From Candidatus Kaiserbacteria bacterium (GTDB lineage Bacteria; Patescibacteriota; Minisyncoccia; Phycocordibacterales; UBA2100): a DNA stretch of 64,000 bases. Every line of letters begins with the position of its first letter. Position 1 is the first letter of the stretch. Made by a program: the position numbers and the translations under genes. Below are positions 2,629 to 57,300 of the stretch, one piece after another. The stretch spans positions 730,274-794,273 of the forward strand of contig CP066682.1 of NCBI GenBank assembly GCA_016432285.1, read 5' to 3'. Below the pieces are notes generated by a model that made no database searches, was not told the origin of the DNA, and saw only the letters and a program-made list of their open reading frames with translations.

Positions 2629-3303
2629 ATGAATCGCCAACCCATCGAGATCGGTGAGTGGTACCACTGCTACAACAGAGGCGTCGATAAAAGAAAAGTT
2701 TTTCTTGGACCAGGAGACTACGATCGTTTCTTGCTGCTCATGTATACGGCGAATGGTCATCTGCCCTCACACACCTTCCATCTTCGCGAAAAGCAACTAC
2801 AGAGATTCCTTGCGGAGGACAAGACGAAGCGCGACCAGATTGTGGAGATCGGAGCATATTCCCTGATGCCGAATCACTTCCACTTTGTGCTCAAGGAAAC
2901 ACGCGCGGGCGGCATCGCTCTGTTCATGCAAAAAGTACTGACCGGATACACCATGTTCTTCAACAAGAAAAACGAACGTACGGGGGCTTTATTTGCAGGG
3001 ACGTTCAAATCAAAGCACATCGACGATGACGATTACTTAAAGCTACTCATCCCCTACGTTCACCTCAACAGCGTCGAGCTGTTTGATCCCAAGTGGAAAA
3101 GCGGGAGAGGCAGCACCGCTGCCGTGCAGCAGCGAGTTTCGCAATACCCCTACTCGAGTTTGATGGATTTCATCGGCAAACCACGTCCCGAAAGGAAAAT
3201 CATTGGAGACGCGATTTTCGAACTGTATGACTCACTTCCGTCTGCACGCGAAATGCTTGACGACGCGAAGGAGTACTTCACGCAAACGAATACCGAGGTT
3301 TAA
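2629..3303 (+). CDS. REP-associated tyrosine transposase (RAYT, IS200/IS605 TnpA-like Y1 HuH family), copy 1
   Basis: 224 aa with a HuH motif (PNHFHFVLKE) and a C-terminal Tyr region (YPYSSLMDF), about 45% identical to the two other copies in the window. Flanked by cognate REPs, and its stop TAA lies in the centre of REP 3291-3311. Confidence 0.85.
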   Translation: MNRQPIEIGEWYHCYNRGVDKRKVFLGPGDYDRFLLLMYTANGHLPSHTFHLREKQLQRFLAEDKTKRDQIVEIGAYSLMPNHFHFVLKETRAGGIALFMQKVLTGYTMFFNKKNERTGALFAGTFKSKHIDDDDYLKLLIPYVHLNSVELFDPKWKSGRGSTAAVQQRVSQYPYSSLMDFIGKPRPERKIIGDAIFELYDSLPSAREMLDDAKEYFTQTNTEV

Positions 3304-3311: not shown

Positions 3312-4001
3312 CTACCAACCCTTTGCGGTCAGGGCTTTTTGTGCGGCGTCTTGTTCGGCCTCTTGCTTCGAGCGGCCTTCGCCGGAGGCGATTTTCTCCT
3401 TGCCGATATGCGCCGCCACCACGAAGCGTTTGTCGTGATCCGGGCCGCTCTGATCCACAAGCTCGTATTTCGGCGTGACGCCAAGCTGCTCCTGCGCGAT
3501 CTCCTGGAAGCGGCTCTTCGCGTCTTGCCACAAGCGCTTCGAGACCACCTCCTCGGTCTTGTGGAAAAGCTGATCCGCGATGAATTTTTTTGCGGCCTCG
3601 TAGCCGGCGTCGAGGTAGACTGCGCCGATCAGCGCTTCAAAGGCGTTGGCGAGGATGATTTGCCGCGCACGACCGGTGTCTCTCGACTCGCCGCGCGAGA
3701 GAAAGAGGTGATCGTTCATCTGGAGCACGGTTGCCGAAGCTGCGAGCGAGATCGTATTGACGAGCGCTGCCCGGTAGGCGGTGAGATCCCCTTCCGGCCG
3801 GTCGGGAAATTTGGCGTACAAAAATTCGGTAACCACGAGCTCCAGGACCGCGTCGCCCAAAAACTCCAGCCGTTCGTTGTGTTCGCGCCCGAGAGCGCGG
3901 TTTTCGTTGAGGTACGAGCGATGCGTAAACGCCTGCTCCAGGAGGCCCTTTTCCCGGAAGGTGTACCCGATCTTTTTTTCAAAACCAGCGAAGTCGGACA
4001 T
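3312..4001 (-). CDS. rnc: Ribonuclease III
   Basis: RNase III signature ERLEFLGDAVLE near the N-terminus, a C-terminal dsRBD-like region, 229 aa. Confidence 0.9.
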   Translation of the reverse strand: MSDFAGFEKKIGYTFREKGLLEQAFTHRSYLNENRALGREHNERLEFLGDAVLELVVTEFLYAKFPDRPEGDLTAYRAALVNTISLAASATVLQMNDHLFLSRGESRDTGRARQIILANAFEALIGAVYLDAGYEAAKKFIADQLFHKTEEVVSKRLWQDAKSRFQEIAQEQLGVTPKYELVDQSGPDHDKRFVVAAHIGKEKIASGEGRSKQEAEQDAAQKALTAKGW

Positions 4002-4013
4002 GGGTCGATGCTT

Positions 4014-4943
4014 CTATTTCCTGTCTCGCTGCGCGAGGAGATTGATGGCGGGAATAATGATCTTCAGCGTGTCGTCATAGAAATTGAGATCCCCCACCGC
4101 CGCAAGCGGAAACCACTGTGCGTCGTCGAGCCCGCCGGTTTGCTTCAGCTTCAGCTCGGAAAAGGGCGACTCCGCGAGGAAGTAGGTAACGTGCTTTTTC
4201 TTTTTGCCGCCCTCCACCTTGGAGTCGTTGGCCACGTACGTGTTTTCACCGAGCTTCTCCCTGATCATGATATCGAGTCCCATTTCTTCCTTGATCTCGC
4301 GCACCGCCGCCTCCTCGATCGTCTCGTCGCTGATTTCAGGCTTGTCGCCCACCTTGCCCTTCGAGATCGTCCAGTGGCCGAAGATGTCGTGCACGAATGC
4401 GAGGTATGTCTCGTCGCCGTTTTTGGCGTAGACCACGGCACCCGCGAGATGCTCCGTCAGGATCTTGCCCGACTTCGTCGCTTCCTTTTTCCTTGTGCTG
4501 CCCTCGTTTTTGCCGGGTTCCCCCAGCTCGATGTAGACGGCCCCCAAAACACCGTTGACGAATCGCCCTGAAGAGGAGCTGCCAAAAGTTTTCGCAAGCT
4601 CGATGGCCTCGTTGATCGCCACTTTGGCGGGCACTTGCGTGCGGTCGGCATAGAGGAGTTCAGAGAGGCCGAGCCGCAGCACGTTGCGGTCGATCGCCGC
4701 GATCTTTTCGAGCGGCCACTCGGGTGCCGCACGCACGATCACATCGTCGACTTCGCGCTGTTTCGCGATTGCCGTTTGGAGGACGTTTTTCATGAACGGC
4801 ATGTCCGACTCGCGCGCGCCGAACTCTTTCGCGTAGTCAGCGAGTCTTTGTACCGCTTCTTCGTTCGTCATCTTCCCTCCTCCAGCATCACGCTCGAAGA
4901 GAACCTGAAGAACGACGGAGCGGGCTAAGTGTCGATTTGCCAT
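4014..4943 (-). CDS. nusB: NusB-like antitermination domain fused to a C-terminal NUDIX hydrolase domain
   Basis: The N-terminal half carries the NusB hallmarks ARSVVLQVLFE ... VPAKVAINEAIELAKTFG ... FVNGVLG. The C-terminal half has a Nudix box GHWTISKGKVGDKPEISDETIEEAAVREIKEEMGL. A single continuous 309-aa ORF. Confidence 0.75.
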   Translation of the reverse strand: MANRHLARSVVLQVLFERDAGGGKMTNEEAVQRLADYAKEFGARESDMPFMKNVLQTAIAKQREVDDVIVRAAPEWPLEKIAAIDRNVLRLGLSELLYADRTQVPAKVAINEAIELAKTFGSSSSGRFVNGVLGAVYIELGEPGKNEGSTRKKEATKSGKILTEHLAGAVVYAKNGDETYLAFVHDIFGHWTISKGKVGDKPEISDETIEEAAVREIKEEMGLDIMIREKLGENTYVANDSKVEGGKKKKHVTYFLAESPFSELKLKQTGGLDDAQWFPLAAVGDLNFYDDTLKIIIPAINLLAQRDRK

Positions 4944-5035
4944 ACAAAAGAACGGAAAACTACTCTCACCTCTTCAGCTTACAGGAAATACATGAAAAAA
5001 CCGTAAAGAACGGCGCGAACGTGTGAATAGTGTGA

Positions 5036-5317
5036 TTATGCGGAGGTCGTCGCTTCTTCTTTCTTCGTTTCCGTTTGTGCGCCGGCGCCCGCTTGCGGCT
5101 GTTCGGCTTGACGGCGCTTTGCGCGACGTTGCTCACGCTTCGTACGAGCAACCACATCGATCACGACACGGCCGTTGTACTTGCCGCATTCGGGGCATGC
5201 ACGGTGCGGAATGCGGAGCGCGCCGCACTCGCAGGTGGCGAGCTTCTGCGCTTTCAGGGCGTGATGAGAGCGCCGCTTGGCGGTCTCGGATCGATTGCGA
5301 CGCATTCGTACGACCAT
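5036..5317 (-). CDS. rpmF: 50S ribosomal protein L32 with a K/E/A-rich C-terminal extension
   Basis: From the ATG at 5315-5317: MVVRMRRNRSETAKRRSHHALKA, then a CxxC...CxxC zinc ribbon (CECG...CPECGKYNGR) typical of L32, then an extension AKRRQAEQPQAGAGAQTETKKEE. Confidence 0.7.
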   Translation of the reverse strand: MVVRMRRNRSETAKRRSHHALKAQKLATCECGALRIPHRACPECGKYNGRVVIDVVARTKREQRRAKRRQAEQPQAGAGAQTETKKEEATTSA

Positions 5318-5433
5318 AGTCGCAGCACTATACAAAAAAAGCTCGGAATATTCAACCCCTCACACGGTTCCTCCGTTTTTTCAAAAAAGAGAAGACTGCT
5401 CTGCGTGGTATCAACGCTGCCCCGTGTGTGGGG

Positions 5434-6051
5434 TCAAGCGTGCACGGGCTGCTGCATTTTTGGGCCGATCCGCAGGCGCGAGCAGAATGAGACACGGTGC
5501 AGGTCGCTGAGACCATGGCGCGCGATCGCTCGGCGGTGCGCGAGTGTCGCGTAGCCTTTGTGCACGTCGAAGCCGTAGTCCGGATAGTGCTCCGAAAGCT
5601 CCTCCATGCGCCGATCGCGCAAGACTTTGGCCGCGATCGAGGCGAGGGAGATCACGGGCTCGGTCTCGTCGCCGCGTATGATCGTGTGCTGATCAAAAAA
5701 TTCGCGCGGAGCCCGGAGCCCGCCGTCGAGCAGTACCGTACTTTGTGCCACCTGCGGCTCCAGCGCGTAAATCGCCGAATAGAGTGCGCGACGAATCGCC
5801 GATACGATGCCGAACTCATCGATGTAGTCGCACGAGGAAAAGCGCACCGCATAGCGGATTTTGCCTCTGCTCTCGAGTACCTGCATCTGCTCGAATATCG
5901 AATCGCGCACTTGCGGCCGTAGCTGCTTCGAATCGCGTACGCCTTCGAGGAGCAACCAGTCGAAATCTTCGGGAAGAAGCACCGCGCCGACAGCCACGGG
6001 GCCCGCAAGAGGGCCGCGGCCGGCCTCATCGATGCCGATCACGTACCGCAT
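5434..6051 (-). CDS. rnhB: Ribonuclease HII
   Basis: N-terminus MRYVIGIDEAGRGPLAGPVAVGAV, the classic RNase HII catalytic motif. 205 aa. Confidence 0.9.
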   Translation of the reverse strand: MRYVIGIDEAGRGPLAGPVAVGAVLLPEDFDWLLLEGVRDSKQLRPQVRDSIFEQMQVLESRGKIRYAVRFSSCDYIDEFGIVSAIRRALYSAIYALEPQVAQSTVLLDGGLRAPREFFDQHTIIRGDETEPVISLASIAAKVLRDRRMEELSEHYPDYGFDVHKGYATLAHRRAIARHGLSDLHRVSFCSRLRIGPKMQQPVHA

Positions 6052-6364: not shown

Positions 6365-6590
6365 TTCCAAATTCCTTCTTGCAGGTTTGTTGGTCGGAGT
6401 GGGTCCGACACCGCCCGGCTACGCGTACTCTTTTGTGCCACGGTGATACTAGCCCCCACCGTGGCGGCGGTCAACGCCAAAATCCCCAGTGCTATACTCG
6501 CTTTATGAGCGTGCGCGGCTTCACCCATGTGCACCCCAGTACCACAACGCTTCGCGTTGGCTACGGGGCAGGTACCCACTCTCTTACGGT

Positions 6591-9500
6591 ATGAAAGCTG
6601 AGTTTGCGCATCTCCACACACATAGTCACTATTCCCTGCTCGAAGCACTCCCCAAAATACCTGAGCTCGTCGACGCCGCAGTAGCCGACGGACAGAGCGC
6701 GCTCGCTCTCACCGACAACGGCAACCTCTACGGCGCGATCGAGTTTTACAAGGAGGCCAAGGCAAAAGGGATCAAGCCGATCATCGGCGTCAATTTCTTT
6801 GTGGCCCCGCGCACGCGGCACGACAAAGAGCACCGCGTCGACGACGCCCTCTCGCGCCTGCTGCTCTTGGCCAAAAATCTGGAGGGCTACCGCAATCTGA
6901 TACAGCTCGTTTCGCGCTCGCATCTCGAAGGTTTCTTCGACCGCCCCCGCATTGACCGCGAGCTTATTTCGGAGCATCGCGGGGGTCTCATCGCAATCCT
7001 GCCGTCGTACGGCGGCAACCATGCGCACGCACTTCGCCATGGCGCACCCGATCGGGCGTCGCAGGAAATTGAATGGATGAAAAAAGTGTACGGCGACGAC
7101 CTCTACCTCGAGATCACCACGCACCCGGAGATCGACACGCACGAAGATGAGATGCAAAAGATCGTGGAGCTTGGGCGTGCGCAGGGCGTAAAGCTCGTGG
7201 CCGCGCACGATGTGTACTACCTTCGCGAAGACGACGGCCTCGCGAGCGATCTTGTCAACAAAATCCGCACCGGAAGTACTCTCCAGCGCGACGTCGACAC
7301 GGTGCGGCGCGACTTTTCCTTTAAGAAACAAGCAGAGATGAAAAAGCGTTTCGCAGATCTTCCGGAGGCCCTGCACAACAACGCCCGCATCGCCGACATG
7401 TGCGATCTGGAACTGACGCTCGGCTCCTGGGTCTTCCCCGATTACCCCGTGGAAAAGGGCTCGAGCCACGATGGGGAGCTGCGCTCGCTCGCGCACCAAG
7501 GATTCAAGACGCGCGGCGTGCCGGAGAGTGCAGAAAATAAGGAGCGGGTAGAGTACGAACTCTCGATCATCGCCAAAAAAGGCTACTCACCCTACTTTCT
7601 CGTGGTCGCCGACCTCTTGCGGCACGCGCGCGAAGAAGGAATCCTCACCAACACCCGTGGGTCCGCCGCCGGCTCTCTGGTCTCCTACCTCTGCGGGATT
7701 ACCACCGTGAATCCGCTGGAGTACCAGCTCCCCTTCGAGCGCTTCCTCAATCCGGAGCGCCCCTCTCCTCCCGACATCGACATGGACCTCGCCGACAACC
7801 GCCGCGACGAGCTGATCGCCTACGTGCGAAAAAAGTATGGCGAAGAGAAAGTCGCGCAGATCGGCACCTTCGGCACCATGATGGCGCGCGCCGCAGTGCG
7901 CGACGTGGCGCGCGCGCTCGGACTTTCATACGGCACGGGAGATGTGATCGCGAAAATGATCCCTTTTGGGAAGCAGGGCTTTCCCGTCTCGATCGAATCC
8001 TCGCTCCGGGACGTACCCGAGCTCGCCAAAGCGCAGAAGTCTGATCCGACAGTGCGCGAGGTGTTGGATCTCGCGCAAAAAATCGAGGGCAACGCGCGGC
8101 ACGTGGGCGTGCATGCAGCAGGCGTGGTGATCGCTCCCACTGCGGTAACGGATTTCTCACCGGTGCAGCTCGATCCGAAGGGCGGCAAGATCATCACGCA
8201 GTACGACATGTATGCGGTTGAGGAAGCGGGACTCCTCAAGTTCGACTTCCTCGGTCTCACCAACCTCTCGGTCTTGGCCGATGCGGTGTCGCGCGTGAAA
8301 GAGCGCATCGGTGTGGAGGTCGATCTCGATCGGCTCCCGCTCGACGACAAAAAAACCTTCGAGCTGCTCTCGCGCGGCGAGACGCTCGGCGTCTTCCAGC
8401 TCGCGGGAGGCGGCATGACGAGCTACCTTGTCGACCTCGAGCCTTCCTCGATCCACGACATCAACGCCATGGTGGCGCTCTACCGCCCGGGCCCCATGGC
8501 TTTTATCCCCGCGTACATCGAGCGCAAGAAAAATCCGAAGCTTGTGAAGTACCTCGATCCGCGCATGGAGCCGATTCTCAAAAAATCGTACGGCGTCATC
8601 ACCTACCAGGACGACGTCTTGGAGATCGCGATTAAGCTTGCCGGCTACTCGTGGCTTGAGGCGGACGGTTTCCGCAAGGCCATGGGCAAGAAGATCCCGA
8701 AGGAGATGGCCGCACAGAAGGAGAAATTTACCAAAGGCTGCGTTGCGGGCGGCATGAAAAAGGAGACTGTGCAGAAAATCTGGGAGCAGATCGAGACATT
8801 CGCCGCCTACGGCTTCAACAAGGCGCACGCCGCAAGCTACGGCAACCTTGCCTACAAGACCGCGTACATGAAGGCCAACTTCGCGGTCGATTACATGGCC
8901 GCGCTCCTCACGGCCGACGCGGGCGACGTGGAGAAGATTTCGGAAGCTGTGGCGGAGTGCAAGCGCCTGGAGATCACCGTGTGGCCGCCGTCGGTCAAGG
9001 AGAGCGCGGGCACTTTCACGGTGATCGACGACAAGAATATCCGCTTCGGACTCTACTCGATCAAAAACTTCGGCACCGGCGTCGCTGATTCGATCATCGC
9101 GGCACGCCAAAAAGACGGGCCCTTCAAAGACATTGCCGACTTTCTTTCGCGTGTTACCGACAAGAATCTCAACCGCAAATCACTCGAGTCGCTGATCCAG
9201 TGCGGCGCCTTCGACGACATGGGGATCACGCGCGGCGAGCTGATGGCCAACATCGAGACACTGCTCACCTTCCACCGTGAGCACCTCAAAGCGCCGCAAG
9301 ACCAGGGCTCGCTTTTCGGCGCGCTCGCTCCTGCGAAGATCTCGCTCTCGCTCGAAAAAGCGCAGCCGGTACCGCTCGACGTGCTGCTCGAATGGGAGAA
9401 GGAGCTCCTCGGGCTCTACGTGTCGGGCCACCCGCTCGACAAGCACAAAGATAAGCTCACGCGCCAGAAGATGGACATCAAAACCGGCAAGGAAAAGTTC

Positions 9501-9752
9501 CCCCGCGGCGTGGAAACGGTGATCGCGGGTCTCCTCGAGACCGTGCAGCCGATCCTCACCAAAAAAGGCGAGCGCATGCTCTTCGCGCGGCTCGCTGACT
9601 ATTCCGACGGCGTGGAGATTGTGGCCTTTCCGCGCGTCGTGAAAGAGAACGAGCAGCTCTTTTTGGCCGGCACATGCATTCTGGTGAAGGGCAAATTTTC
9701 CGAGCGCAATGGAGAAGCCAGTTTTGTTGTTGAGCGAGCGAAGGCTCTCTAA
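6591..9752 (+). CDS. dnaE: DNA polymerase III alpha subunit (short form, about 1053 aa)
   Basis: The N-terminal PHP domain begins MKAEFAHLHTHSHYSLLEALPKIPELVDAAVADGQSALALTDNGNLYGAIEFYK. Polymerase core motifs include GVHAAGVVI and FNKAHAASYG. An OB domain is near the C-terminus. The ORF is open from 6489, but the conserved start is M at 6591. Confidence 0.9.
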   Translation: MKAEFAHLHTHSHYSLLEALPKIPELVDAAVADGQSALALTDNGNLYGAIEFYKEAKAKGIKPIIGVNFFVAPRTRHDKEHRVDDALSRLLLLAKNLEGYRNLIQLVSRSHLEGFFDRPRIDRELISEHRGGLIAILPSYGGNHAHALRHGAPDRASQEIEWMKKVYGDDLYLEITTHPEIDTHEDEMQKIVELGRAQGVKLVAAHDVYYLREDDGLASDLVNKIRTGSTLQRDVDTVRRDFSFKKQAEMKKRFADLPEALHNNARIADMCDLELTLGSWVFPDYPVEKGSSHDGELRSLAHQGFKTRGVPESAENKERVEYELSIIAKKGYSPYFLVVADLLRHAREEGILTNTRGSAAGSLVSYLCGITTVNPLEYQLPFERFLNPERPSPPDIDMDLADNRRDELIAYVRKKYGEEKVAQIGTFGTMMARAAVRDVARALGLSYGTGDVIAKMIPFGKQGFPVSIESSLRDVPELAKAQKSDPTVREVLDLAQKIEGNARHVGVHAAGVVIAPTAVTDFSPVQLDPKGGKIITQYDMYAVEEAGLLKFDFLGLTNLSVLADAVSRVKERIGVEVDLDRLPLDDKKTFELLSRGETLGVFQLAGGGMTSYLVDLEPSSIHDINAMVALYRPGPMAFIPAYIERKKNPKLVKYLDPRMEPILKKSYGVITYQDDVLEIAIKLAGYSWLEADGFRKAMGKKIPKEMAAQKEKFTKGCVAGGMKKETVQKIWEQIETFAAYGFNKAHAASYGNLAYKTAYMKANFAVDYMAALLTADAGDVEKISEAVAECKRLEITVWPPSVKESAGTFTVIDDKNIRFGLYSIKNFGTGVADSIIAARQKDGPFKDIADFLSRVTDKNLNRKSLESLIQCGAFDDMGITRGELMANIETLLTFHREHLKAPQDQGSLFGALAPAKISLSLEKAQPVPLDVLLEWEKELLGLYVSGHPLDKHKDKLTRQKMDIKTGKEKFPRGVETVIAGLLETVQPILTKKGERMLFARLADYSDGVEIVAFPRVVKENEQLFLAGTCILVKGKFSERNGEASFVVERAKAL

Positions 9753-47380: not shown

Positions 47381-48036
47381 ACGCCGACATCTTTGTATCG
47401 TAGCCAATAATCCACATGATCCTGAACTTCCCTAGCGCTCGATAGGTACCCGGGGAAAGCTCGCGGAGAAGTAATTACGTGACGGTTGTTGATATATTCT
47501 CCCAGGCTCGAATACTGATACTCGCTTACATGTCTCTGTAGTTTCCCAAAGTCGCGTGCTCCGAATTTCTTCCAATTTGGATCTTTCAATTTGGCTGGAT
47601 TTAGATGAATATAGGAAAATAAATATTTAGCATACGCATCACCCTCCACGTGCGAGGCCTTAAACGTCCCCTGAAAAAGCGCGCCACTTCGCTCATGTTT
47701 TTCATTGAAATACATCGTATACGCAGTCTGTAGTCTCTGCATAAATTTCGAGATACCGCCGTCGACCAGCGGTGTCAGATACAGATGAAAATGATTGGGC
47801 ATCAAACAATACGCGCCTATTGCCACTAAAGAACTGGAAGGTTTAGCCTCCCAGATCCGGCTCGAGGTTTTAGAAGAGAATAGAAAATCGATTCTTTTGT
47901 TTTCTCTATCATTGAGCAGGAAAAGGTACACCAGAAATCTTTTGTACTCCGCTGGCGACATGAACACTCGGCGTTTATCAACGCCTCTATTGTAAATGTG
48001 ATAGAACTCGCCTTCTGCAAAGGTGATGCGTCTCAT
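47377..48036 (-). CDS. REP-associated tyrosine transposase (RAYT), copy 3, with a REP-derived in-frame insert
   Basis: MRRITFAEGEFYHIYNRGVDKRRVF...GAYCLMPNHFHLYLTP (HuH)...SEYQYSSLGEY (Tyr). The internal REP at 47834-47854 encodes ...RIWEAKPSSS... Its start ATG overlaps the stop of the giant upstream ORF, and its stop overlaps the lepB ATG. Confidence 0.85.
   Translation of the reverse strand: MRRITFAEGEFYHIYNRGVDKRRVFMSPAEYKRFLVYLFLLNDRENKRIDFLFSSKTSSRIWEAKPSSSLVAIGAYCLMPNHFHLYLTPLVDGGISKFMQRLQTAYTMYFNEKHERSGALFQGTFKASHVEGDAYAKYLFSYIHLNPAKLKDPNWKKFGARDFGKLQRHVSEYQYSSLGEYINNRHVITSPRAFPGYLSSAREVQDHVDYWLRYKDVGV
47834..47854. repeat. REP (family 3) copy embedded in-frame within the RAYT3 coding sequence
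   Basis: ctggaaggtttagcctcccag. The reading frame is maintained across it. It sits in the same protein loop as the embedded REP in RAYT2. Confidence 0.8.
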
Positions 48037-51000
48037 AGAGTGGGCGGATCGCGGCGCTCACTGGAAGGTTTAGCCTTCCAACGGGAGCGGGGCGGAGCGT
48101 CTACTGGAAGGTTTAGCCTTCCAGTGGGGGGCTTCCCTCTTGGGACGGGGAGGATGAAGAAGGACATGCCGATGAGGAAGGCGATGGCTTGGACGAAAGA
48201 GGAGACGACGGAGGCGGCGGAAGCGGCGGAGTATTTGAAGGGCTGCTCGGCAAATGCCATGTACACGTACGTCCCCCCGCTCGCATTTGCACCAGCTGCC
48301 GTGTTTCGCTGCTTGAACCCATTGGCGAGAAAATCCATATCGTTGCAGGACGCGGTTTCCGCTGCGTTGGACTCCAATCCAAAACACGGACTGATCGGAT
48401 TACTCGTATCTCGCGCCGCATCGTATGTATTCCAAGAGTATCCGAGCGTGTCTGTCCGTTTGATCACTACGTACTTAGGTTTGAACCCCGTGTACACAAA
48501 CGGCCCATCGGCCGAGCCGTTGCCGGTGTAGGAGCCGAAGTCGGAGAAGCCGGAGATTTCATCAAAAAGATAGGCGACATAGTTGTTGCCGCTGGTATTC
48601 ACATCAGCATTGGTACCGAGCGAGAAGACGGATGCGGTCGGCGCGGTGTCGTTCCAGTAGGTGGCATCGTCGGCGGTCGCGGCTGTGCCGTTCATCAAGA
48701 GGTAATCGGTCTCCGGCGCTGAAGTATTGGCAGCGTGGTAGACCGCCCAGTCGTTGGTCGCGCCGCGGTCTTTTACGATCATAAATTCTGGTGCAGAAGA
48801 GAGCGAATGGCTGATTGTGCGATTGGCACCGGTGCCGGCGTACGGCACGATATCGAATCCGCTCGTCGGATCTTCCTTCCAAAGCCACGAGATGTAGTTG
48901 TTGCCGCTTGTGTTGAAGAGCGAATTTGTGCCGAGCGTGAAGCCGTTTTCCAAGAATGCGGTGAGTGCCGATGCCGAGCTCGTCTCAATCGTCGTCGCGT
49001 TTGAAGAAAGATACGGAAACGTACTGCGTAGCGAATCGAAGAGCCCGTGCGCATTCGCGCTCGTTCTGTCTTTTATCCATGTGAGCGTCGGCGTGAAGTC
49101 GAGCCCCGTCACCGAGAGCGCGGCCCCCGTCCCCGTGTACGTGAGCGCATCGAAGTAATCATCGGGCTGCGTAATCGTCGGCGTAGGAAGATTCGTGGTC
49201 GAGAGGGCTTTGAAATCCGTCGGTGGTGCGTATTGGAAGTACCCTCCTGCCGATGAGCGGTATGGAAGTACCGTTGCTGTTGATGTCGGCGAAGAAGACT
49301 GGCCGAAGTTGAAATTGTACGAATGAGTCTGCCCGCTGGTTTGGCCAGCACCCGCGCCAATGAAGAGCGGGCCAGTGAGACCAGTAAATGCCGAGTTCGT
49401 GCCCGCTGCCGGATCACCGCTCGCCTGCCACGTGCCATTTTTTGAAAACCAAATCTTTCCGTTATCCAAATCGAGCGCAACGCCAATAACGTCGTTGGTC
49501 GTAAAGGTGTCGCCATAGGCGCTGTCACTGCTGCTATTTCGCTTGTTTCCACCACCTGCGTACGTGTACGCGAGATAATTGCTCTCGAGAATACAGTTTT
49601 GAACGGATGACGCGCCGATGAGATATCCTCCGCTAACGCCCGTAGTTCCGGTCGGGACGATCTCGGCGTACCATTTGCCCGATGTGGGTCCGATGGAAGA
49701 GCGACCGAATGTATAACAAGCCGGCGACGCGGGAAAGCTGTCTATCGTTGCCGTGAGGTTTCCTTGAGCAGCCGTCAGATCACTCGACGAATTTGCCAGT
49801 ATGTTTAGAGTCGCAGACCCATTCGTCGGGGAATCCTTGACGTTGTCGGTCGCGTCGAGGTTGTTGGCCGTCCAGTCATTGTTGTTGCTACTCGTATCGT
49901 CGCCGGGGCTGGTGGAGGTGAGCGGCAGGTGGAATCCATTAGTGCCATACGTCCCCGAATATGTCTTCGGTCGCCAGTAGCCCGATGCGTCGTATTCGCC
50001 GAAGTCGGAGGGGGTGAGTGCTTGTCCGTCGATGGCGTAGAAATCCGCAAGGTAGCCGTCGTAGTAAGAGGTCCCGCTATGCTGTTTGCCGAAAGCGTGT
50101 ATGACATTGTCGAGAACGTTCACGTCCGAGTTTTGCGTCATTGATGTATAGCCGGAGCCCGACCACGTTTGTGCAACGCCATTGACCCAAAGCCGGATTC
50201 TATCCGCGGCAGTTGCCTGCGTACTGTCTACGGTAAAGACAATGTGGAGCCACGCACCTGGATCGCGAAACTTCGCGTTTGTTGTATAGCTCCAGGTCTC
50301 ATTACCTGCATAGCCATACAACGTATCGCTGGTCGTAAACCGGAGGCCGTCTGCCGAGTATGCCGACCAGTTGATAAGAAATTGCTCGGTCCCCAGATTT
50401 GCCCGCTTGACCCAAAAGCTGAACGTCGCTGTCTTGCCCGCACCCGTCCCCGCAGATGAGAACGTTTTGGTTAGACTCGCACTATCGTCATCATTGAAAC
50501 GCGTGCTCGATGCGATGGTGAGGTTGTACGCTTGCGCGGATTGCTGGAAGGGCTGTTCGGCGAATGCGGCGTAGACGTACGTGGCACCACTGGCATTGTA
50601 GTTGGCATCCGTCGCACGCGGCTTGAATCCGTTTGAGAGAAAATCCATCTGCCTACTTGATCCGTCGTCTGCGTTTGTCAGATTGGCGTAGATCATGATG
50701 TCGCGGAGATTACCGTCGCCAGCAGCGCTACGTCGGTTGTCCCAGATGTACCAGCCGTTCGTTGAGGCACTGTCGCTTCTTTTTACAAGCAAGAACGCCG
50801 GCTTGAATCCCGTATACACGAACGGCCCATCGCTTGAGCCGTTGCCGGTGTAGGAGCCAAAAGATGAGTAGCCGGTGGTAGAGGCGAAGAGGTAGGCGAC
50901 GTAGTTGTTGCCGCTTGTATTTACATCCGCGTTGGTGCCGAGCGAGAAGACGGATGCGGTCGGAGCCGTATCGTTCCAATATGTAGCGTCGTCGGCAGTT

Positions 51001-53891
51001 GCCGCAGTCGAATTGAGAAGCAGGTAATCGGTCTTTGGGTCAGAGGTGTTTGCGGTGTGGTACACCGCCCAGTCGTTGGTGGCACCGCGATCTTTGATGA
51101 TCATAAAGTCGGGGGCGACACCGAGCGAGTGGCTCACGGTGCGATTGGCTCCCGTGCCCGTGTAATTCACGATGTCGAAGCGCGAGGTCGTGTCTTCTTT
51201 CCAGTTCCAGCTCACATAATTGTTGCCGCTCGTGTTGAAGAGCGCATTGGTGCCGAGGGTAAATCCATTCGAGAGGAAGCTCGTGAGCGTGGTCGAGGCA
51301 CCGCCGGTCTCCGCCGTCGTCGCATTGGACGAGAGGTACGGGAAGACGGAGCGGATGGCATCGAAGAGCCCGTGCGCGTTCGCGCTCGTGCGGTCTTTAA
51401 TCCAGACGAGGGAGGGGGTGAAGCCGAAGGATACGCCGGTCGAGACGTAGGTAATTTTGATGATGCCTTGCGCCCCCGCGCCGCCATTGCCCGTGGTCGT
51501 TCCTCCATATCCGCCCGAGCCGCCGCCGCCGCCGTAACTGCCCCCGTTGCCGCCGGCCGAACCGGTCGGCTCTTGCCCCGAACCGCCGGCGCCACCGCCA
51601 CCAGAGCCATGAGTGGCGTCCCACTCGGTACCGTTACCTCCGTTGCCGCCCGCCGCCCCCGCCACACCAGTGCCTCCGGCACCGCCTAAACCATTACCGC
51701 CCTGCCCGCCACTGGTGCCTGCAACTCCAGCACCAAGACCTGCAGTGCTAACGCCATCGGCACCCGCACCACTTGGGCCGCCGGCGCCACCACCACCCTG
51801 CCCGGCATAGTTGTTGGAGATATAGCCGCCTGTCCCGCCATTATATTTCGTACTCCCTACTGAAGCCGATGCAAGCCCGCCGGCTCCGGAACCCGTCAAG
51901 TAAACTGCACCATTGCCTGCCTTTGCACACACCGAAACAGTGTCGGCACAAGTGTTTGCTGACCCCGATGTCCGATTAAAGAATGTATCTGTTCCGGCAC
52001 TACCGTTCGACCCGTTGGTCGCGCCGCCTGCACCTCCTGCACCGACCTGAAAAGTGACGTTCCCGCCGGGAGTAAGAGAAAGATTTGATACTTTTGAATA
52101 AGCTCCGCCGCCGCCGCCGCCGTGGTCGCCATCGGCAGTCCCATCACGAACGCCGCCGCCGCCGCCGCCGATTACCTCAATAGTGTTGCTCGCATTGCCC
52201 CAATCGCTCGGCACCTGCCAAGTTTTGGCCGTCGTGTCCGTGAGATATACCGTGACGGTTTGCCCGGCAGTAGATGCGGCTGCCCGCGATACAGACTGTG
52301 CGGCGCCGCTACCCGTGTACGCCACCGCGTCAAAATAATTCTTCGGCACCGTGACCGCCGGCTCCGGAAGATTGGCAGTAGAAATTGCTTTGAACCCCGT
52401 CGGAGGCGTGTACATAAAGTAGCCGCCGGCTGCCGAGTCGTAGGTAAGTGTCGTTGCGGTGGAGGTCGGATTTTTGGATTGCCCGAAAATCAGATAGCTT
52501 TCCGTACTTCTGCTTACTCCAGCATCCATTCCTACTACCGGAAAAATCGGCGTGGTGGTGGAGATGTTGGAGAAGGCGGCATTTGTGCCCGCCACCGGAT
52601 CGGAAGATTCAAACCATCCGCTTTCGTCGCGGACGAAGAGTTTTCCGGCATCTGCATCGATCGCAACACCTAGGGTCAGATCGAGAGAACACGTGGAGTA
52701 CGTCGGCCCATACGCCGTGAGCGTCGTGTTGTAGATGGTGCACGATTTACCGCCGGTACACGAGCCCGAATTGGCGGGTAGCCATCCCCAGCTATTCGTA
52801 GTTTGCCCTACATATTCATCTTTACTTGCGTTGGTATTTGCTACTCCTACTTCAACATTGCAAATTCCCGACAAGTTCGCACTGCGAGCTTCAAAATACC
52901 ACTTGCCGCTGGTGATACCCATCGTTGCAAAATCGGTGGCGTTGGTACCGGTCCGGCTTGAATACAGATTGCCTTGAGAGTACGTCGAGATGGAAGGCTT
53001 GTTGAGCACGTTCAGGGTCGGATACATATTGGTCGGCGTATCAACCTCTTGATCCGTCGCGTTGATATTGTTGGCGGTCCAGTCGTTGTTTTGGCCGCTC
53101 ACGTCGTTACCAAGATCCGAGCCGCTCGCGAAATCAAGCTTAAAGCCGTTGGTGCCGTAGGTTCCGGTGTAGCTTTTGGGTCGCCAGTAGCCGTTGGCGT
53201 CCGTCTCGCCAAACGACGATGGCGTCAGCGCCTGGCCGTCGATCAGATAGACATCGGAAAGGTAACCATCAAAGTATGTTGAGTTTGAGTTACCGAATCG
53301 CCCTATTGCATGTGGATCCGTGCCATTTACTCTCGTGTCGACGTTTTGCGACGGGTCGTTTGCATCGCGAGCGATTCGCTGGCCATTCACATAAAATATG
53401 ACCCTGTCACCTGCGGTAGCTGCTGTCGTGTCCACAGCGACTACCACGTGCATCCATTGTGAAGGGTCTCGAAATACCGCGGTACTTTGTGTAGTCGGCG
53501 CGTTTGAACTGCTTTCTCGGCGTTGGAATTGGAGCTTATCGGAGTTGAAAGATATCGACGTGTGATGATCACCCGCCGTTGGTTCAGCGCTAAAGAGGAT
53601 ACCGTCTGTGAGATTCGCCCGCTTCACCCATGCACTCCACGTCCACGTCTTTTTATTTCCTGCGCTACTGGGCGTGCGCGACAGTCGAGCACTGTCGTCG
53701 TCGTTGAAGCGCGCGGAATTCGATATTGAATACGCGGCTTTGGCTTCCGGAAGCTGGAGGAGCACAAATTGCGTCGCAAATATCGCCAAGGAGATGAGAA
53801 GCGCGGTCGCGATACGGTGATGCCAGAGGTATCCCCCGATTGCGGGAATATATTTAGAGTTTAAAGATTTAAATGTTGGAAGCGGGAGCAT
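48033..53891 (-). CDS. Giant membrane-anchored surface protein (1952 aa) with two LamG-like (concanavalin-A-like lectin) domains in a duplicated ~800-aa super-repeat and a Gly-rich core
   Basis: N-terminal anchor (IATALLISLAIFATQFVLLQL). Two LamG-like jelly-roll signatures (TWTWSAWVKRANL...WMHVVVAVD...VIFYVNGQ and TATFSFWVKRANL...WLHIVFTVD...IRLWVNGV). A duplicated block ending NYVAYLF...FGSYTGNGS(A/S)DGPFVYTGFKP...YVYMAFAEQPF. A central tract of about 250 aa that is more than 50% Gly (GGGGGVRDGTADGDHGGGGGGAYS...GGNGGSYGGGGGSGGYGG). The last about 40 codons are REP-derived. Confidence 0.7.
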   Translation of the reverse strand: MLPLPTFKSLNSKYIPAIGGYLWHHRIATALLISLAIFATQFVLLQLPEAKAAYSISNSARFNDDDSARLSRTPSSAGNKKTWTWSAWVKRANLTDGILFSAEPTAGDHHTSISFNSDKLQFQRRESSSNAPTTQSTAVFRDPSQWMHVVVAVDTTAATAGDRVIFYVNGQRIARDANDPSQNVDTRVNGTDPHAIGRFGNSNSTYFDGYLSDVYLIDGQALTPSSFGETDANGYWRPKSYTGTYGTNGFKLDFASGSDLGNDVSGQNNDWTANNINATDQEVDTPTNMYPTLNVLNKPSISTYSQGNLYSSRTGTNATDFATMGITSGKWYFEARSANLSGICNVEVGVANTNASKDEYVGQTTNSWGWLPANSGSCTGGKSCTIYNTTLTAYGPTYSTCSLDLTLGVAIDADAGKLFVRDESGWFESSDPVAGTNAAFSNISTTTPIFPVVGMDAGVSRSTESYLIFGQSKNPTSTATTLTYDSAAGGYFMYTPPTGFKAISTANLPEPAVTVPKNYFDAVAYTGSGAAQSVSRAAASTAGQTVTVYLTDTTAKTWQVPSDWGNASNTIEVIGGGGGGVRDGTADGDHGGGGGGAYSKVSNLSLTPGGNVTFQVGAGGAGGATNGSNGSAGTDTFFNRTSGSANTCADTVSVCAKAGNGAVYLTGSGAGGLASASVGSTKYNGGTGGYISNNYAGQGGGGAGGPSGAGADGVSTAGLGAGVAGTSGGQGGNGLGGAGGTGVAGAAGGNGGNGTEWDATHGSGGGGAGGSGQEPTGSAGGNGGSYGGGGGSGGYGGTTTGNGGAGAQGIIKITYVSTGVSFGFTPSLVWIKDRTSANAHGLFDAIRSVFPYLSSNATTAETGGASTTLTSFLSNGFTLGTNALFNTSGNNYVSWNWKEDTTSRFDIVNYTGTGANRTVSHSLGVAPDFMIIKDRGATNDWAVYHTANTSDPKTDYLLLNSTAATADDATYWNDTAPTASVFSLGTNADVNTSGNNYVAYLFASTTGYSSFGSYTGNGSSDGPFVYTGFKPAFLLVKRSDSASTNGWYIWDNRRSAAGDGNLRDIMIYANLTNADDGSSRQMDFLSNGFKPRATDANYNASGATYVYAAFAEQPFQQSAQAYNLTIASSTRFNDDDSASLTKTFSSAGTGAGKTATFSFWVKRANLGTEQFLINWSAYSADGLRFTTSDTLYGYAGNETWSYTTNAKFRDPGAWLHIVFTVDSTQATAADRIRLWVNGVAQTWSGSGYTSMTQNSDVNVLDNVIHAFGKQHSGTSYYDGYLADFYAIDGQALTPSDFGEYDASGYWRPKTYSGTYGTNGFHLPLTSTSPGDDTSSNNNDWTANNLDATDNVKDSPTNGSATLNILANSSSDLTAAQGNLTATIDSFPASPACYTFGRSSIGPTSGKWYAEIVPTGTTGVSGGYLIGASSVQNCILESNYLAYTYAGGGNKRNSSSDSAYGDTFTTNDVIGVALDLDNGKIWFSKNGTWQASGDPAAGTNSAFTGLTGPLFIGAGAGQTSGQTHSYNFNFGQSSSPTSTATVLPYRSSAGGYFQYAPPTDFKALSTTNLPTPTITQPDDYFDALTYTGTGAALSVTGLDFTPTLTWIKDRTSANAHGLFDSLRSTFPYLSSNATTIETSSASALTAFLENGFTLGTNSLFNTSGNNYISWLWKEDPTSGFDIVPYAGTGANRTISHSLSSAPEFMIVKDRGATNDWAVYHAANTSAPETDYLLMNGTAATADDATYWNDTAPTASVFSLGTNADVNTSGNNYVAYLFDEISGFSDFGSYTGNGSADGPFVYTGFKPKYVVIKRTDTLGYSWNTYDAARDTSNPISPCFGLESNAAETASCNDMDFLANGFKQRNTAAGANASGGTYVYMAFAEQPFKYSAASAASVVSSFVQAIAFLIGMSFFILPVPRGKPPTGRLNLPVDAPPRSRWKAKPSSERRDPPTL
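48061..48124. repeat. Two REP (family 3) copies at the 3' end of the giant gene
   Basis: ctggaaggtttagccttcca (48061-48080) and ctggaaggtttagccttccag (48104-48124). The giant ORF reads through both (...GRLNLPV... and ...WKAKPSS...) before stopping at 48033. Confidence 0.85.
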
Positions 53892-54387: not shown

Positions 54388-57300
54388 CTAGAAGTTGGTC
54401 GCGGCAGCGCCGAATACTTGCGTCGCGGAAGAAGTGGCGTAGGTAGCGATGAATGTCGCGAGGTCGCACTTATTTGCAGTCGTGGTGAGGGTTGGCGCCG
54501 TGCCGCTTTGCCAGTTGACGCTGCCCCACGTGACAGTGCGCGATCCTGTGCCGTCCTGACACACCACAAGCCGCAAGATCTGTCCGGCGACATAGTTGGA
54601 GAAGTTGATTGTGCGGTTGCCACCGAGCGTTACGCGCTGCTGGTTGCCGTCACGCCAGTTGACTGTGATCGTCGCTCCATCAGTGAGCGCGTTCTCCACC
54701 GTCGTGATGGCGCCTCCGGCACCCACGGTGAATTTCGCCCACGGACTTGAGGTGCCCACACCGAGCTTGCCGTCGCTCGTGAAGACGAGGAGCGACTGAT
54801 TCGTCGTCGAAGCGATTTGCAAGAAGTTGCTTGTATCGTCGCTCGTCTCGATCGTGAGTTTGTATGCGGGCGTAGATGTGCCGATGCCGATTTTATTTTC
54901 CGCGACAATATTTCCGGTGCCAGTGGGATTGCCCGAAGGGCACGAGCCGCCGGTGCAAGACCAGAGATTATCGTCGTTGAGGAAGATGTCGTTGCCCGAC
55001 GGATCGATCGTTAGATCACCCGAAGCGTCGGTGAGGAATTGCGTGTAGCGTCCGGCATCGTACGCGAGTGCGAGTTGGGCGGTAGAGACCGCATCGGCGA
55101 CCGAAAGCTTGCGGAAAGGCGTCGTCGTGCCGACACCGAGGTACCCGGCGCTCGAAAGGCGCATCGCCTCGGTGAGCGAGCCCGACTGGAGCGTTGAGAA
55201 GACGAGATCCCCTTGGCCAGCTCCATAGTTCTGCTGGAGGATCGACGCGATTGCGGCCGTCGAAGTGCTGTTGCCGAGCACGTCGAGCGCTCGGAAGGTG
55301 AGGCGCGAAGCGCTCGAGGTGGCGCTCGCGAGATTCGAGAGGAAGAGGTTGTCGAAGGTGGAACCGCTCGAAGCGCCTGCAATCTCCATCTTAGCTGACG
55401 GAGTCGTGGTGCCGACACCGAAGTTGCCAGACGTCGTAAGGAAGATTGTAGAAGTTGCAGTAAGACTTGTTCCTGCTGCTTGGTAGAACGGAAGTTGTCC
55501 TTGCGTGCCGCTTCCGACGCTCCCGCCGAGACACGATCCGTTGACCGAAAAGCAGCCATCGTTGAGGTTGATGCCGTTCGCGGCAGTGGAGGTGGCACTG
55601 CCTGTCAGATTGAAAGCGGTCATTTGCAGGGCTCCGTACACTGTTGAGGTTCCACTATTTATAAAGTTGGCCACGTTGCCGATTGAAAAGACTGACGCGG
55701 GCGAGGAGGTACCGATCCCCACGAGCCCGTTGGCGTCGATAGCGAAGACGCTGGACGTAGCAAAACCCGAAGTGGAGGAAGAGATCGCAAAGAGCGGTGC
55801 CGTACCTCCCGCAGCGCCCGCGACCGAGAGCCGGGCAAAGGGCGAAGTGGTGCCCACACCGAAGCCCGTCGATGTCCAGCGCGTCAGCTCCGAGCCGCCG
55901 ACGATCGCGTTGATGTTGCCGGAGACGCCGGCCGCAAAACCGGTCGTGGAATCGCCGCGGCTGACGATGATATTTGGAGTCGTTTGTGTAACTCCGCTTG
56001 CATTCAAGAGCGAGAAACCCGCGGAGTTTGTCGAGCTCAAGGTGCCGCCGGTCGTGATCGCGCTTCCCACAGTGAGTCGAGCCGTACCTGCGGAGGAAAT
56101 AACGACCGAGCCACTGCTGTTGTAAATTCCCGAGTTTGAGTTGTTGGTAAAGGCGAGTGCGGGCGAGGATGCCGAGCCATCAGCGAGATAGCCGACGCCA
56201 GCGATCGAAAGCGCGGTGGTGGAAGCGTACGGGAACGTGTTGGCGGAGGTGGAGGTGACGGTAATCGCGCCGGTGGTGTCGATGGTCGTCGTTGCAGTGG
56301 CGCCGAAATACGCAGGGCCGTACGAAGAGAAGAGTGTCGTGGAAGCGCGCGGCAGTGTGGTGAGGCCGCTTACCGTGAGCGTTCCCGCACCCGAAATATT
56401 ACCCGCAGTGTCGATTGTGGTTGTGGCGGTCGAACCGAAGTAGGCGGGACCGTAGGCGGAGAGAAGAGTCGTCGAGGCGCGCGGCAGTGTGGTGAGGCCG
56501 CTCACCGTGAGCGATGAGAGCACCGTGGCACCCGCGTCGAGCGTATCGGCACCGATGTTGATCGCTCCGAAACCGGTGGTGATCTGACCGCTGTCGAGCG
56601 CTCCGACCGAAGTGAGCGACGAGCCGACTACGCTTGACCCGAGCGTCGTGCCGTTTAGCGCGAGCGCGTTGTTGATGAGGAACGCGCCGCCCGAAGCGAG
56701 GTTGAGGTTGCCGCCAGTGAGCGTGATGCCGCCCGAGAAAGTAGAGGTGGCGCTGTTGCCCACGATCGAGGTGGTGGCTGTACCGCCGATACTCAAGGTG
56801 CCGTAGCTTGTTGCGGACGAGAAGGTACTGGCACCCGCGGTGAGAGCACTGGATCCGATGTTGATGGAACTAAATCCGGAGCCGATGGACCCGGCGGTGA
56901 GTGCGCCGACTGTCGTGATCGAGGTCTGACCAACGTACGTAGAAGAAATATCGATCGCGTCGGCCGTCACCGAAATCCTGTTGGCCGTTCCCACCGCATT
57001 CACCGTATTACCGCTTTTGGTGAGACCATCGCCCGCGGTGATCTCGGATGATCCCGAGAATTGAGTGAATGAGAGCGAGGTGCTGTCGAGCGTGATGGTG
57101 GCCGGAGTAATCAGGGACCAGCCGGTGTTGGCGTATGCGGTTCCCTCAGTTACGAACGTGTACATCCCGGTAATCACTTCCGAATTCTCATTGGCGTCTG
57201 ACGAGCGCGACCACGCGCCAGCCGCGACTACATAGATGCCGTTGGCGCTCGCCGTACTCTGCCCCATCACCAACACGCGATCGCCCGCGATCGCCGAGAC

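Follow-up and report, generated by a model that had tools for sequence, protein, structure and literature searches.

A NusB antitermination factor fused to an Ap4A-hydrolase-type Nudix domain in Candidatus Kaiserbacteria and related bacteria

The gene described here lies in a 64,000-nucleotide (nt) stretch of a Candidatus Kaiserbacteria genome (GenBank assembly GCA_016432285.1, contig CP066682.1, positions 730,274 to 794,273), which we call the window and number from its first letter. On its minus strand, the list of open reading frames (ORFs) gives one ORF of 309 codons plus stop, from an ATG at 4943 down to 4014, whose product joins the transcription antitermination factor NusB to a Nudix-fold domain (nusB::nudix; Table 1). 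A first-pass annotation, made by a model from the letters alone, had described such a fusion next to rnc and rpmF, and on these points it was right: the ORF carries a full NusB and a Nudix domain, both profiles score above their curated cut-offs, and both neighbours adjoin the gene on the same strand, with rnc beginning 12 nt past the fusion's stop codon. A promoter-like site lies at 5355..5327, near the rpmF start. The ATG at 4943 is the true start rather than Met25, the start used in one database gene call (P0001), because the N-terminal residues R4, R8, and Q13, which are NusB positions, are at least 83% conserved. A further ORF, 3339..4571 on the plus strand, overlaps the gene in antisense and is a by-product of high GC content (58.8% in the window). 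A tblastn search found no second nusB or Nudix paralogue in the 64-kb window, and Rfam and ARAGORN gave one tRNA-Thr only, with no rRNA operon or rRNA-leader BoxA in it.

Table 1. Features of the nusB::nudix locus, in window coordinates
Feature	Position	Strand	Basis or remark
nusB::nudix gene	4014..4943	-	ORF; PF01029 and PF00293 above cut-offs
NusB domain, residues 1-140, seven helices	4524..4943	-	TIGR01951, Foldseek
Lys/Glu/Gly-rich flexible linker, residues 141-162	4458..4523	-	model, without secondary structure
Nudix-fold domain, Ap4A-hydrolase type, residues 163-308	4020..4457	-	PF00293, PDB profile, Foldseek
Nudix box G196...E207-x7-R215-E216-I-K-E219-E220-M-G222-L223	4275..4358	-	sequence and alignments
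KPEIS insertion, residues 201-205	4329..4343	-	alignments; turns G-x5-E into G-x10-E
BoxA-like element 1, GUUCUUUA	5004..5011	-	exact 8-nt core of GYTCTTTAANA
BoxA-like element 2, GUUCUUUU	4946..4953	-	ends 2 nt before the start codon
rnc (RNase III)	3312..4001	-	TIGR02191, 255.6 bits; position conserved
rpmF (ribosomal protein L32)	5036..5335	-	TIGR01031 and PF01783; conserved upstream neighbour
rnhB (RNase HII)	5434..6051	-	co-directional neighbour upstream of rpmF
dnaE	6489..9752		divergent from rnhB-rpmF-nusB::nudix-rnc

The N-terminal half has the marks of a working NusB. PF01029 covers residues 7-136 (E=2.3e-29, 102.9 bits against a cut-off of 23.1), and the NCBIfam equivalog TIGR01951 scores 110.2 bits (cut-off 88.35). 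In an AlphaFold2 model built with a 43-sequence family alignment, seven helices (residues 3-20, 27-40, 45-60, 62-72, 83-98, 106-120, and 123-140) are placed with a predicted local distance difference test (pLDDT) mostly above 90. Foldseek aligns this half with T. maritima NusB at a template modelling (TM) score of 0.84 and a root-mean-square deviation (rmsd) of 1.7 A, and with Aquifex NusB from the NusB-NusE-BoxA/dsRNA complexes at TM 0.87; over the matches 1tzv, 3r2c, and 3r2d the ranges are TM 0.84-0.87 and rmsd 1.7-2.0 A. The BoxA site of NusB lies along its C-terminal helix alpha7 (PMC3177189), where F122 stacks on U8 of BoxA in a pocket formed with NusE and the substitution F122D is defective (Stagno et al., PMC3177189). 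In a pairwise alignment, F128 on the corresponding helix (residues 123-140) pairs with this Aquifex/E. coli residue, 'GRFVNGVL' standing opposite 'GKFVNGVL' in Aquifex. F128 is 100% conserved in the fused family, E95 and G131 are also invariant, and conservation of the canonical motifs DRN.LR and NEA.E is 80% or higher. The NusB half thus looks fully functional. To judge from these alignments, the protein is the NusB of this organism: the factor that pairs with S10 and binds BoxA RNA in the complex for rRNA antitermination and ribosome biogenesis.

The fused protein is like canonical NusB in its seven-helix fold, its score above the equivalog cut-off, its retention of the BoxA-U8-stacking phenylalanine, and a BoxA-like element in the leader of its gene (see below). 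It differs in architecture, canonical NusB being a single domain of about 140 amino acids (aa) and the fused protein adding a disordered linker and a 146-residue Nudix domain, and in context: nusB of model bacteria sits in a ribH-nusB or yqhY-nusB-folD arrangement, unlike the conserved rpmF-nusB-rnc order of the fused gene. An architectural precedent is RsmB/Sun, a 16S rRNA methyltransferase that also has an N-terminal NusB-like domain ahead of a C-terminal enzyme acting on rRNA, and RsmB models match residues 33-139 of the fused protein. However, the C-terminal partner in RsmB is an S-adenosylmethionine-dependent methyltransferase and its NusB-like domain is not the cell's NusB, whereas the fused protein passes the NusB equivalog cut-off.

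Between the two domains the chain appears to be flexible. The model (mean pLDDT 91.3) divides into three parts, NusB at residues 3-140, the linker at 141-162, and Nudix at 163-308, and the linker has no secondary structure, with pLDDT below 50 at residues 146-156. The predicted TM score (pTM) of the whole is 0.66 although both domains are confident, which argues that they have no fixed relative orientation; since the linker starts directly after alpha7, the Nudix domain would be tethered within about 22 residues of the RNA-binding site. The start of the linker (residues 141-147, 4503-4523) carries a semi-conserved 'GEPGK' (family consensus VYxExGEPxK), which, lying in a segment predicted to be disordered, may be a short docking motif or hinge. 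Many members have a second linker motif, '(D/N)MP(V/I)E', with a conserved methionine (for example P0122, P0165, and P0240) that is missing from the window's protein. Several database 'Nudix-only' proteins start exactly at this methionine (for example P0129 and P0154); most of these are probably gene-calling or contig-edge fragments, and an internal start there may also yield a free Nudix domain.

The C-terminal half aligns to the Nudix profile as the first-pass annotation had expected (PF00293, residues 171-285, E=5.7e-13, 49.5 bits against a cut-off of 21.1), and both profile and fold searches give it a narrower placement. Searched against the Protein Data Bank (PDB), the family profile retrieves Aquifex diadenosine tetraphosphate (Ap4A) hydrolase 3I7U first (1.6e-20), followed by CT771 (4ilq, 4.6e-16), Ndx1 (1vc8, 3.9e-15), human NUDT2 (3u53, 2.7e-12), and C. 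elegans Ap4A hydrolase (1kt9, 1e-11), with Dcp2 (~5e-10) and MutT1 (9e-10) beyond them. The modelled alpha/beta/alpha fold likewise matches 3I7U at Foldseek rank 1 (TM 0.86, rmsd 2.5 A), then MutT1/Rv2985 (a 'Nudix diadenosine polyphosphatase'), the Ap6A hydrolase Ndx1, CT771, and the C. elegans and human Ap4A hydrolases, with the NrtR Nudix domain, Dcp2, and BdRppH at lower ranks. Both orders therefore place the C-terminal half in the asymmetrical ApnA-hydrolase branch of the superfamily rather than in the RppH, NudC, or MutT branches. Membership of the RppH family was rejected, the only such protein among the 60 best PDB profile matches being BdRppH (3ees, 4.5e-5 over 36 residues; fold rank 50), with E. 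coli RppH absent from the PDB sequence-profile matches. Neither ranking supports membership of the NudC family, so the NAD-cap chemistry raised in the first-pass annotation finds no support; its other suggestion, a coupling to Np4N (nucleoside-tetraphosphate) chemistry, gains from the nearest relatives being Ap4A/Ap6A hydrolases and loses in that the catalytic residues are not conserved family-wide, while those of the ligand pocket are.

The resemblance extends to individual pocket residues. The fused Nudix domain shares W-T-x-x-K-G, a tyrosine after the Nudix box, and an aromatic residue in the C-terminal helix with the Ap4A/ApnA hydrolases Aquifex aq_158 (3I7U), T. thermophilus Ndx1, C. trachomatis CT771, NUDT2, the C. 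elegans enzyme, and M. tuberculosis Rv2985/MutT1. Those enzymes are stand-alone proteins, except that MutT1 also has a histidine-phosphatase domain, and their Nudix signature is complete, whereas in most NusB-fused lineages the signature is eroded. Y236, 89% conserved in the fused proteins, pairs with the tyrosine of 'NYVA' in NUDT2 and with the matching tyrosines of CT771 and the Aquifex enzyme; in Ap4A hydrolases a tyrosine or phenylalanine about 17 residues after the Nudix box stacks the adenine (Coseno et al., PMC2425470). Y236 stands at +13 rather than about +17, the intervening loop being four residues shorter. Y289 pairs with the aromatic residue in the C-terminal helix of Ap4A hydrolases and presumably forms the second face of an adenine sandwich.

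The window's own protein has a largely canonical Nudix box. E207-TIEEAAV-R215-E216-I-K-E219-E220-M-G222-L223 follows the signature E-x7-R-E-U-x-E-E-x-G-U throughout; the 'complete' box of the first-pass annotation holds for this E-x7-REIKEEMGL stretch, but not for the first glycine, which stands 10 residues rather than 5 before the glutamate (G196 to E207, G-x10-E), most close relatives having the canonical G-x5-E. The difference is due to the KPEIS insertion, modelled at pLDDT ~90 as a short turn ahead of the Nudix helix and found only in the window's protein, its 100%- and 89%-identical relatives, and one further sequence type (VGDKEEFKDE). Among 201 close Kaiserbacteria relatives (at least 60% identity), 151 retain E-R-E-E-E and a sister clade of 41 has changed RE to RK. 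In the window's lineage the Nudix module probably also hydrolyses its ligand, and for the window's protein itself hydrolytic competence is plausible but uncertain.

The fusion is neither confined to this genome nor recent. All 120 of the best full-protein homologues (75-100% identity, from NCBI, JGI, ENA, and Logan assemblies) carry both PF01029 and PF00293, and those with names are labelled 'transcription antitermination factor NusB [Candidatus Kaiserbacteria]'. Divergent members used as a profile query gave a further 120 listed homologues, all two-domain proteins, including some from Nomurabacteria and Moranbacteria. At least 547 relatives were confirmed in a scan that took a single genome for each GTDB species, and in the best 80 of these, drawn from Kaiserbacteria, Adlerbacteria, and genomes labelled Nomurabacteria, Paceibacterota, or Minisyncoccia, the fusion is full-length and colinear over residues 1 to ~306 at 60-81% identity. 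It is also present in thousands of metagenomic sequences (Kaiserbacteria, Adlerbacteria, Nomurabacteria, Moranbacteria, and other Paceibacterota). The order rnhB-rpmF-fusion-rnc, with rpmF, the fusion, and rnc co-directional, is conserved in essentially all 80 loci, and rpmF and rnc also flank a homologue that is only 37% identical (locus L084). With the Nudix domain alone as query, an exhaustive search of 1.84 billion proteins returned 541 clusters, many of them NusB fusions of 290-310 aa with Nudix-domain identity down to ~30%; the fusion must therefore be old. Among the best-scoring homologues listed for Paceibacteria-type bacteria of the Candidate Phyla Radiation (CPR), the fused protein is the only form of NusB. 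The first-pass annotation did not know the fusion as a described architecture, and among 8 million searchable papers no description of it or functional proposal for it was found, but it is not rare, being the standard annotated 'NusB' of a large CPR class. Each domain is known and the combination already stands, unremarked, in public annotation; it is a real, widespread, and undescribed variant of NusB.

The same narrow Nudix clade has other members. No split nusB and nudix gene pair was found among three Nudix-only matches inspected: P0127 is a contig-edge fragment followed by rnc, P0170 lies on a contig shorter than 1 kb, and P0153 (L081 4001-4453) is a true stand-alone member of the clade with an intact box, ~42% identical to the Nudix domain of the window's protein. 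Its neighbours are integrase, DNA methylase, and Phage_rep_O-like (Rep) genes, and it appears to lie on a mobile element or prophage. Further architectures include an unrelated N-terminal region of ~235 aa (P0208, 379 aa, with the box ERKEE), a long N-terminal extension plus a NusB-like domain ahead of Nudix (P0214, 577 aa), a hydrophobic, membrane-protein-like N-terminal region ahead of Nudix (P0261, 450 aa), and a tandem Nudix-Nudix protein (P0217, 291 aa).

Across this clade the catalytic residues and the pocket residues have had different fates. We aligned representatives of clusters at 50% identity with MAFFT and anchored the columns on the window's protein by motif. E207, R215, E216, E219, and E220 are all intact in only 9 of the 47 NusB-fused representatives (19%), against 21 of the 24 Nudix-only ones (88%; Fisher p=5.8e-8, between representatives that are phylogenetically non-independent), and the EE pair is intact in 25/47 and 23/24, respectively. 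The replacements are often non-conservative (E216 to K, V, I, or A; E219 to K, D, S, Q, R, T, or L). On a neighbour-joining tree built without the box columns, the box signature changes state at least 14 times: stand-alone proteins and a basal fused clade are intact, and losses are scattered through the large fused clade, so that the catalytic glutamates and arginine are reconstructed as having been lost repeatedly after fusion. By contrast, D186, W191, T192, K195, Y236, Y254, W277, and Y289 ('DWTKYYWY') are present in nearly every sequence, fused or Nudix-only. An eroded box beside a near-invariant pocket implies that the conserved role is probably ligand binding rather than hydrolysis, and the pattern of replacements indicates that after fusion the constraint on catalysis was relaxed and that on the nucleotide pocket was not.

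The leader of the gene has features of its own. The spacer between rpmF and nusB::nudix is 92 nt long (4944-5035) and holds two CCGUUCUUU motifs on the coding strand, each within an element resembling the BoxA consensus GYTCTTTAANA (PMC5725501). Just after rpmF, a weak terminator-like hairpin (5014..5000) with a U-run behind it holds element 1 in its loop. Of the five GYTCTTTA sites in the window, element 1 alone falls outside the listed long ORFs; CGTTCTTT occurs at three sites only in the whole 64 kb. Apart from this weak hairpin, the spacer has no significant stable RNA structure (z = -0.53). In relatives, UGCUCUUU[AU] or UGUUCUUU stands upstream of the ATG, often with UGAUCUUU 5-10 nt later. 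The motif G[CT]TC[CT]TT occurs within 80 nt of the ATG in 48 of 78 loci, where dinucleotide shuffles predict 4.1 (opposite strand, 2); [TC]G[CT]TCTTT within the same distance in 28 of 78 (1.1 expected from such shuffles; opposite strand, 0); and GYTCTTTA within 100 nt in 14 of 78 (0.54 expected from random windows; opposite strand, 0). The BoxA-like leader motif is thus 12-26-fold enriched and strand-specific. In the 100 nt upstream of the gene in the related loci (L001-L080), the element is often followed by TGATCTTT. The leader of the distant fused homologue in L084 (3552-3661) has two direct copies of the 14-nt TAACAGCACCTTGT right before the ATG, adjoining the BoxA-like UUCCUUUAACA (9/11 consensus positions).

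In E. coli the Nus complex can repress suhB through a BoxA in the leader, and autoregulation of this kind has been predicted for nusE and ribH-nusB (Baniulyte et al., PMC5725501). By analogy, the simplest reading of the leader elements suggests that NusB::Nudix may regulate its own operon through BoxA; if so, the leader is also an indirect sign that the NusB half binds BoxA.

The explanation that we think fits best, with a probability of about one half, is that the protein is a NusB with a tethered Ap4A-hydrolase-type Nudix module whose conserved job would be to bind an adenine-nucleoside polyphosphate and so tune the action of NusB. NusB would carry the module on a flexible tether of about 22 residues leaving the end of the BoxA-binding helix alpha7. 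The pocket could bind a free Ap4A-type alarmone or ATP, or else the pppA- or Np4-capped 5' end of the same BoxA-bearing nascent transcript; both ligand classes fit. Binding would make the action of NusB on rRNA leaders, and on its own BoxA leader, responsive to the ligand, and in lineages with an intact box, including that of the window, hydrolysis would probably accompany binding and reset the signal or remove the cap. Stated in its fullest form, as a ligand-gated antitermination factor in which an Ap4A-type alarmone or an Np4/ppp-adenosine 5' end in the tethered pocket tunes NusB-S10-BoxA, with hydrolysis following in some lineages, the proposal is one that we put forward only tentatively and consider somewhat doubtful.

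Several precedents exist for the parts of this mechanism. Bacterial RNA can bear Np4 caps, which Nudix enzymes read (PMC7044304, PMC8833179), and NUDT2, an Ap4A hydrolase, trims 5'-triphosphorylated RNA (PPP-RNA) to monophosphorylated P-RNA (PMC8616924). In the transcriptional regulator NrtR, a Nudix domain of the ADP-ribose (ADPR) pyrophosphatase type is joined to a DNA-binding domain, and most members have a perturbed signature and are inactive, yet bind ADP-ribose as effector (Rodionov et al., PMC2330246); activity is found in the members whose signature is intact, and fusion is proposed to have come first and loss of catalysis later (PMC2330246). NrtR and the fused NusB have in common a Nudix effector domain on a nucleic-acid-binding regulator, a mixture of intact and perturbed signatures, and a fusion-first history. 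However, NrtR has a Nudix domain derived from ADP-ribose pyrophosphatases and a winged-helix DNA-binding domain that acts at promoters, while the fused NusB has a C-terminal Nudix domain of the Ap4A type on an RNA-binding elongation and antitermination factor, so that the likeness would be one of analogy, not of membership. Another parallel is CF Im25 (NUDT21), a subunit with a Nudix fold in an RNA-processing machine; its box has lost catalytic glutamates, and it binds Ap4A, at ~2.4 uM, and ATP without hydrolysing them (PMC2425470). CF Im25 differs in being a eukaryotic 3'-end processing factor without NusB, its adenine-stacking residue is another one and lies upstream of the box, and no close sequence relationship was seen.

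Several points weigh against a module that primarily binds. E220, the counterpart of Ndx1 E50, which was mutated by the depositors of that structure to trap the ATP substrate, is still present in 89% of fused proteins, so that many 'degenerate' members could still work as slow enzymes instead of only binding. The commonest box change is RE to RK, which may or may not abolish activity in this subfamily, and the conserved aromatic residues could in part belong to the fold core rather than to the pocket. The comparison of fused with Nudix-only proteins is affected both by the shared ancestry of its cluster representatives, noted above, and by the chance that some 'Nudix-only' sequences are fragments of fused genes (one case was seen). 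The identity of the ligand would follow from homology only, and the 5-residue insertion in the metal-binding loop makes the activity of the window's protein uncertain.

The alternative that survives best holds that catalysis is the point of the fusion: NusB would dock on a BoxA close to the 5' terminus of the pre-rRNA leader, and the tethered Nudix enzyme would convert the 5'-triphosphate or Np4N cap there to a monophosphate for the 5'-end-dependent RNases that clear the leader after RNase III cleavage. Ap4A-type Nudix enzymes do act on RNA ends, NUDT2 on PPP-RNA (PMC8616924) and RppH on Np4 caps (PMC8833179, PMC7044304); Dcp2 is among the profile matches, the linker leaves NusB beside the BoxA site (PMC3177189), rnc is the conserved downstream gene, and the window's lineage keeps E-R-E-E-E. 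Nevertheless, 81% of the divergent fused representatives miss one or more signature residues, the outcome of at least 14 independent changes in which fusion and pocket were kept, whereas an obligatory catalysis should have held the box as well as in the stand-alone relatives. RppH/NudH, which removes the 5' pyrophosphate and Np4 caps from bacterial RNA (PMC8833179, PMC7044304) and so has the very chemistry that this explanation calls for, is a stand-alone enzyme with no link to transcription factors and is not among the closest relatives of the fused Nudix domain, as the low rank of BdRppH and the missing E. coli match indicate. We consider this explanation unlikely; a purely catalytic, tethered decapping is weakened by the repeated loss of the box and is a possible account of the window's lineage.

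The catalytic residues are dispensable, and the Nudix fold might instead serve as a protein-protein or RNA-surface module that stabilises the antitermination complex and has no small-molecule ligand. SuhB, a phosphatase-fold protein that is an integral, non-catalytic part of the E. coli rRNA antitermination complex (PMC6614797, PMC5725501), would be the model for such a role, and CF Im25 uses a Nudix fold within an RNA-processing complex (PMC2425470). However, the invariant residues define an Ap4A-hydrolase pocket (the lysine of WT..KG and the adenine-stacking tyrosine after the box), and their being equally invariant in stand-alone enzymes argues for ligand binding; the model also has no confident fixed domain interface (pTM 0.66, disordered linker). 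A structural subunit of this kind seems improbable to us. The two halves might also work independently, a housekeeping Ap4A hydrolase gene having merged with nusB in a streamlined genome, as could be suggested by the compactness of CPR genomes, by the flexible linker and the apparent independence of the domains in the model, and by the existence of stand-alone relatives, one of them in a mobile-element-like context. This we regard as very unlikely: the fusion has been kept down to ~30% identity with its gene order conserved, and in a housekeeping hydrolase catalytic residues would not be lost again and again under strong constraint on the pocket. That an assembly, frameshift, or gene-calling error joined two genes, a worry of the first-pass annotation with nothing beyond its a priori possibility in its favour, is for practical purposes refuted by the recurrence of the identical architecture in hundreds of independent genomes (240 of 240 listed homologues and, with full-length colinear matches, 80 species-representative genomes), and by a structure model that is confident across both domains.

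A few other features of the window deserve mention. Convergent to rnc lies an ORF of 224 aa (2629-3303, plus strand) with weak, sub-threshold likeness to Y1 tyrosine transposases of the REP-associated or IS200 type (NF047646, 29.6 bits; PF01797, 20.6 bits). A homologue is found near the same operon in 8 of 80 related loci, in 6 of them downstream of rnc, and it may be a domesticated or recurrently inserted element. Far from the operon, a minus-strand ORF of 1952 aa (48033-53891) with Laminin_G_3, SPRY, and DUF7483 (E=5e-188) adjoins another of 2256 aa (54388-61158, minus strand) that has no Pfam match; these giant ORFs may encode CPR surface or host-interaction proteins.

The usual picture of NusB is that of a simple adaptor, conserved universally and made of one domain; a whole class of the ultra-small Patescibacteria has a two-domain replacement for it. 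Such a NusB implies an extra input to rRNA antitermination and ribosome assembly that is absent in model bacteria, and it hints at an undescribed link from a stress nucleotide, or from RNA 5' caps, to ribosome production. Since the NCBI annotation pipeline PGAP names the fused proteins simply 'NusB', surveys of CPR metabolism that go by annotation cannot see the extra domain. Receptors of Ap4A and readers of Np4 caps are long-standing open questions for which the NusB-tethered pocket is a concrete candidate, and the loss of catalysis with retention of the pocket is a natural experiment in the change from enzyme to sensor. If the factor is indeed ligand-gated, rRNA transcription, the processing done by co-transcribed RNase III, and, through the leader BoxA, the synthesis of NusB itself would all be coupled directly to the status of stress nucleotides or of RNA 5' caps. 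The fused protein would then be the counterpart of NrtR at the level of RNA and, among Nus factors, the first known to sense an effector, found throughout a major CPR class.

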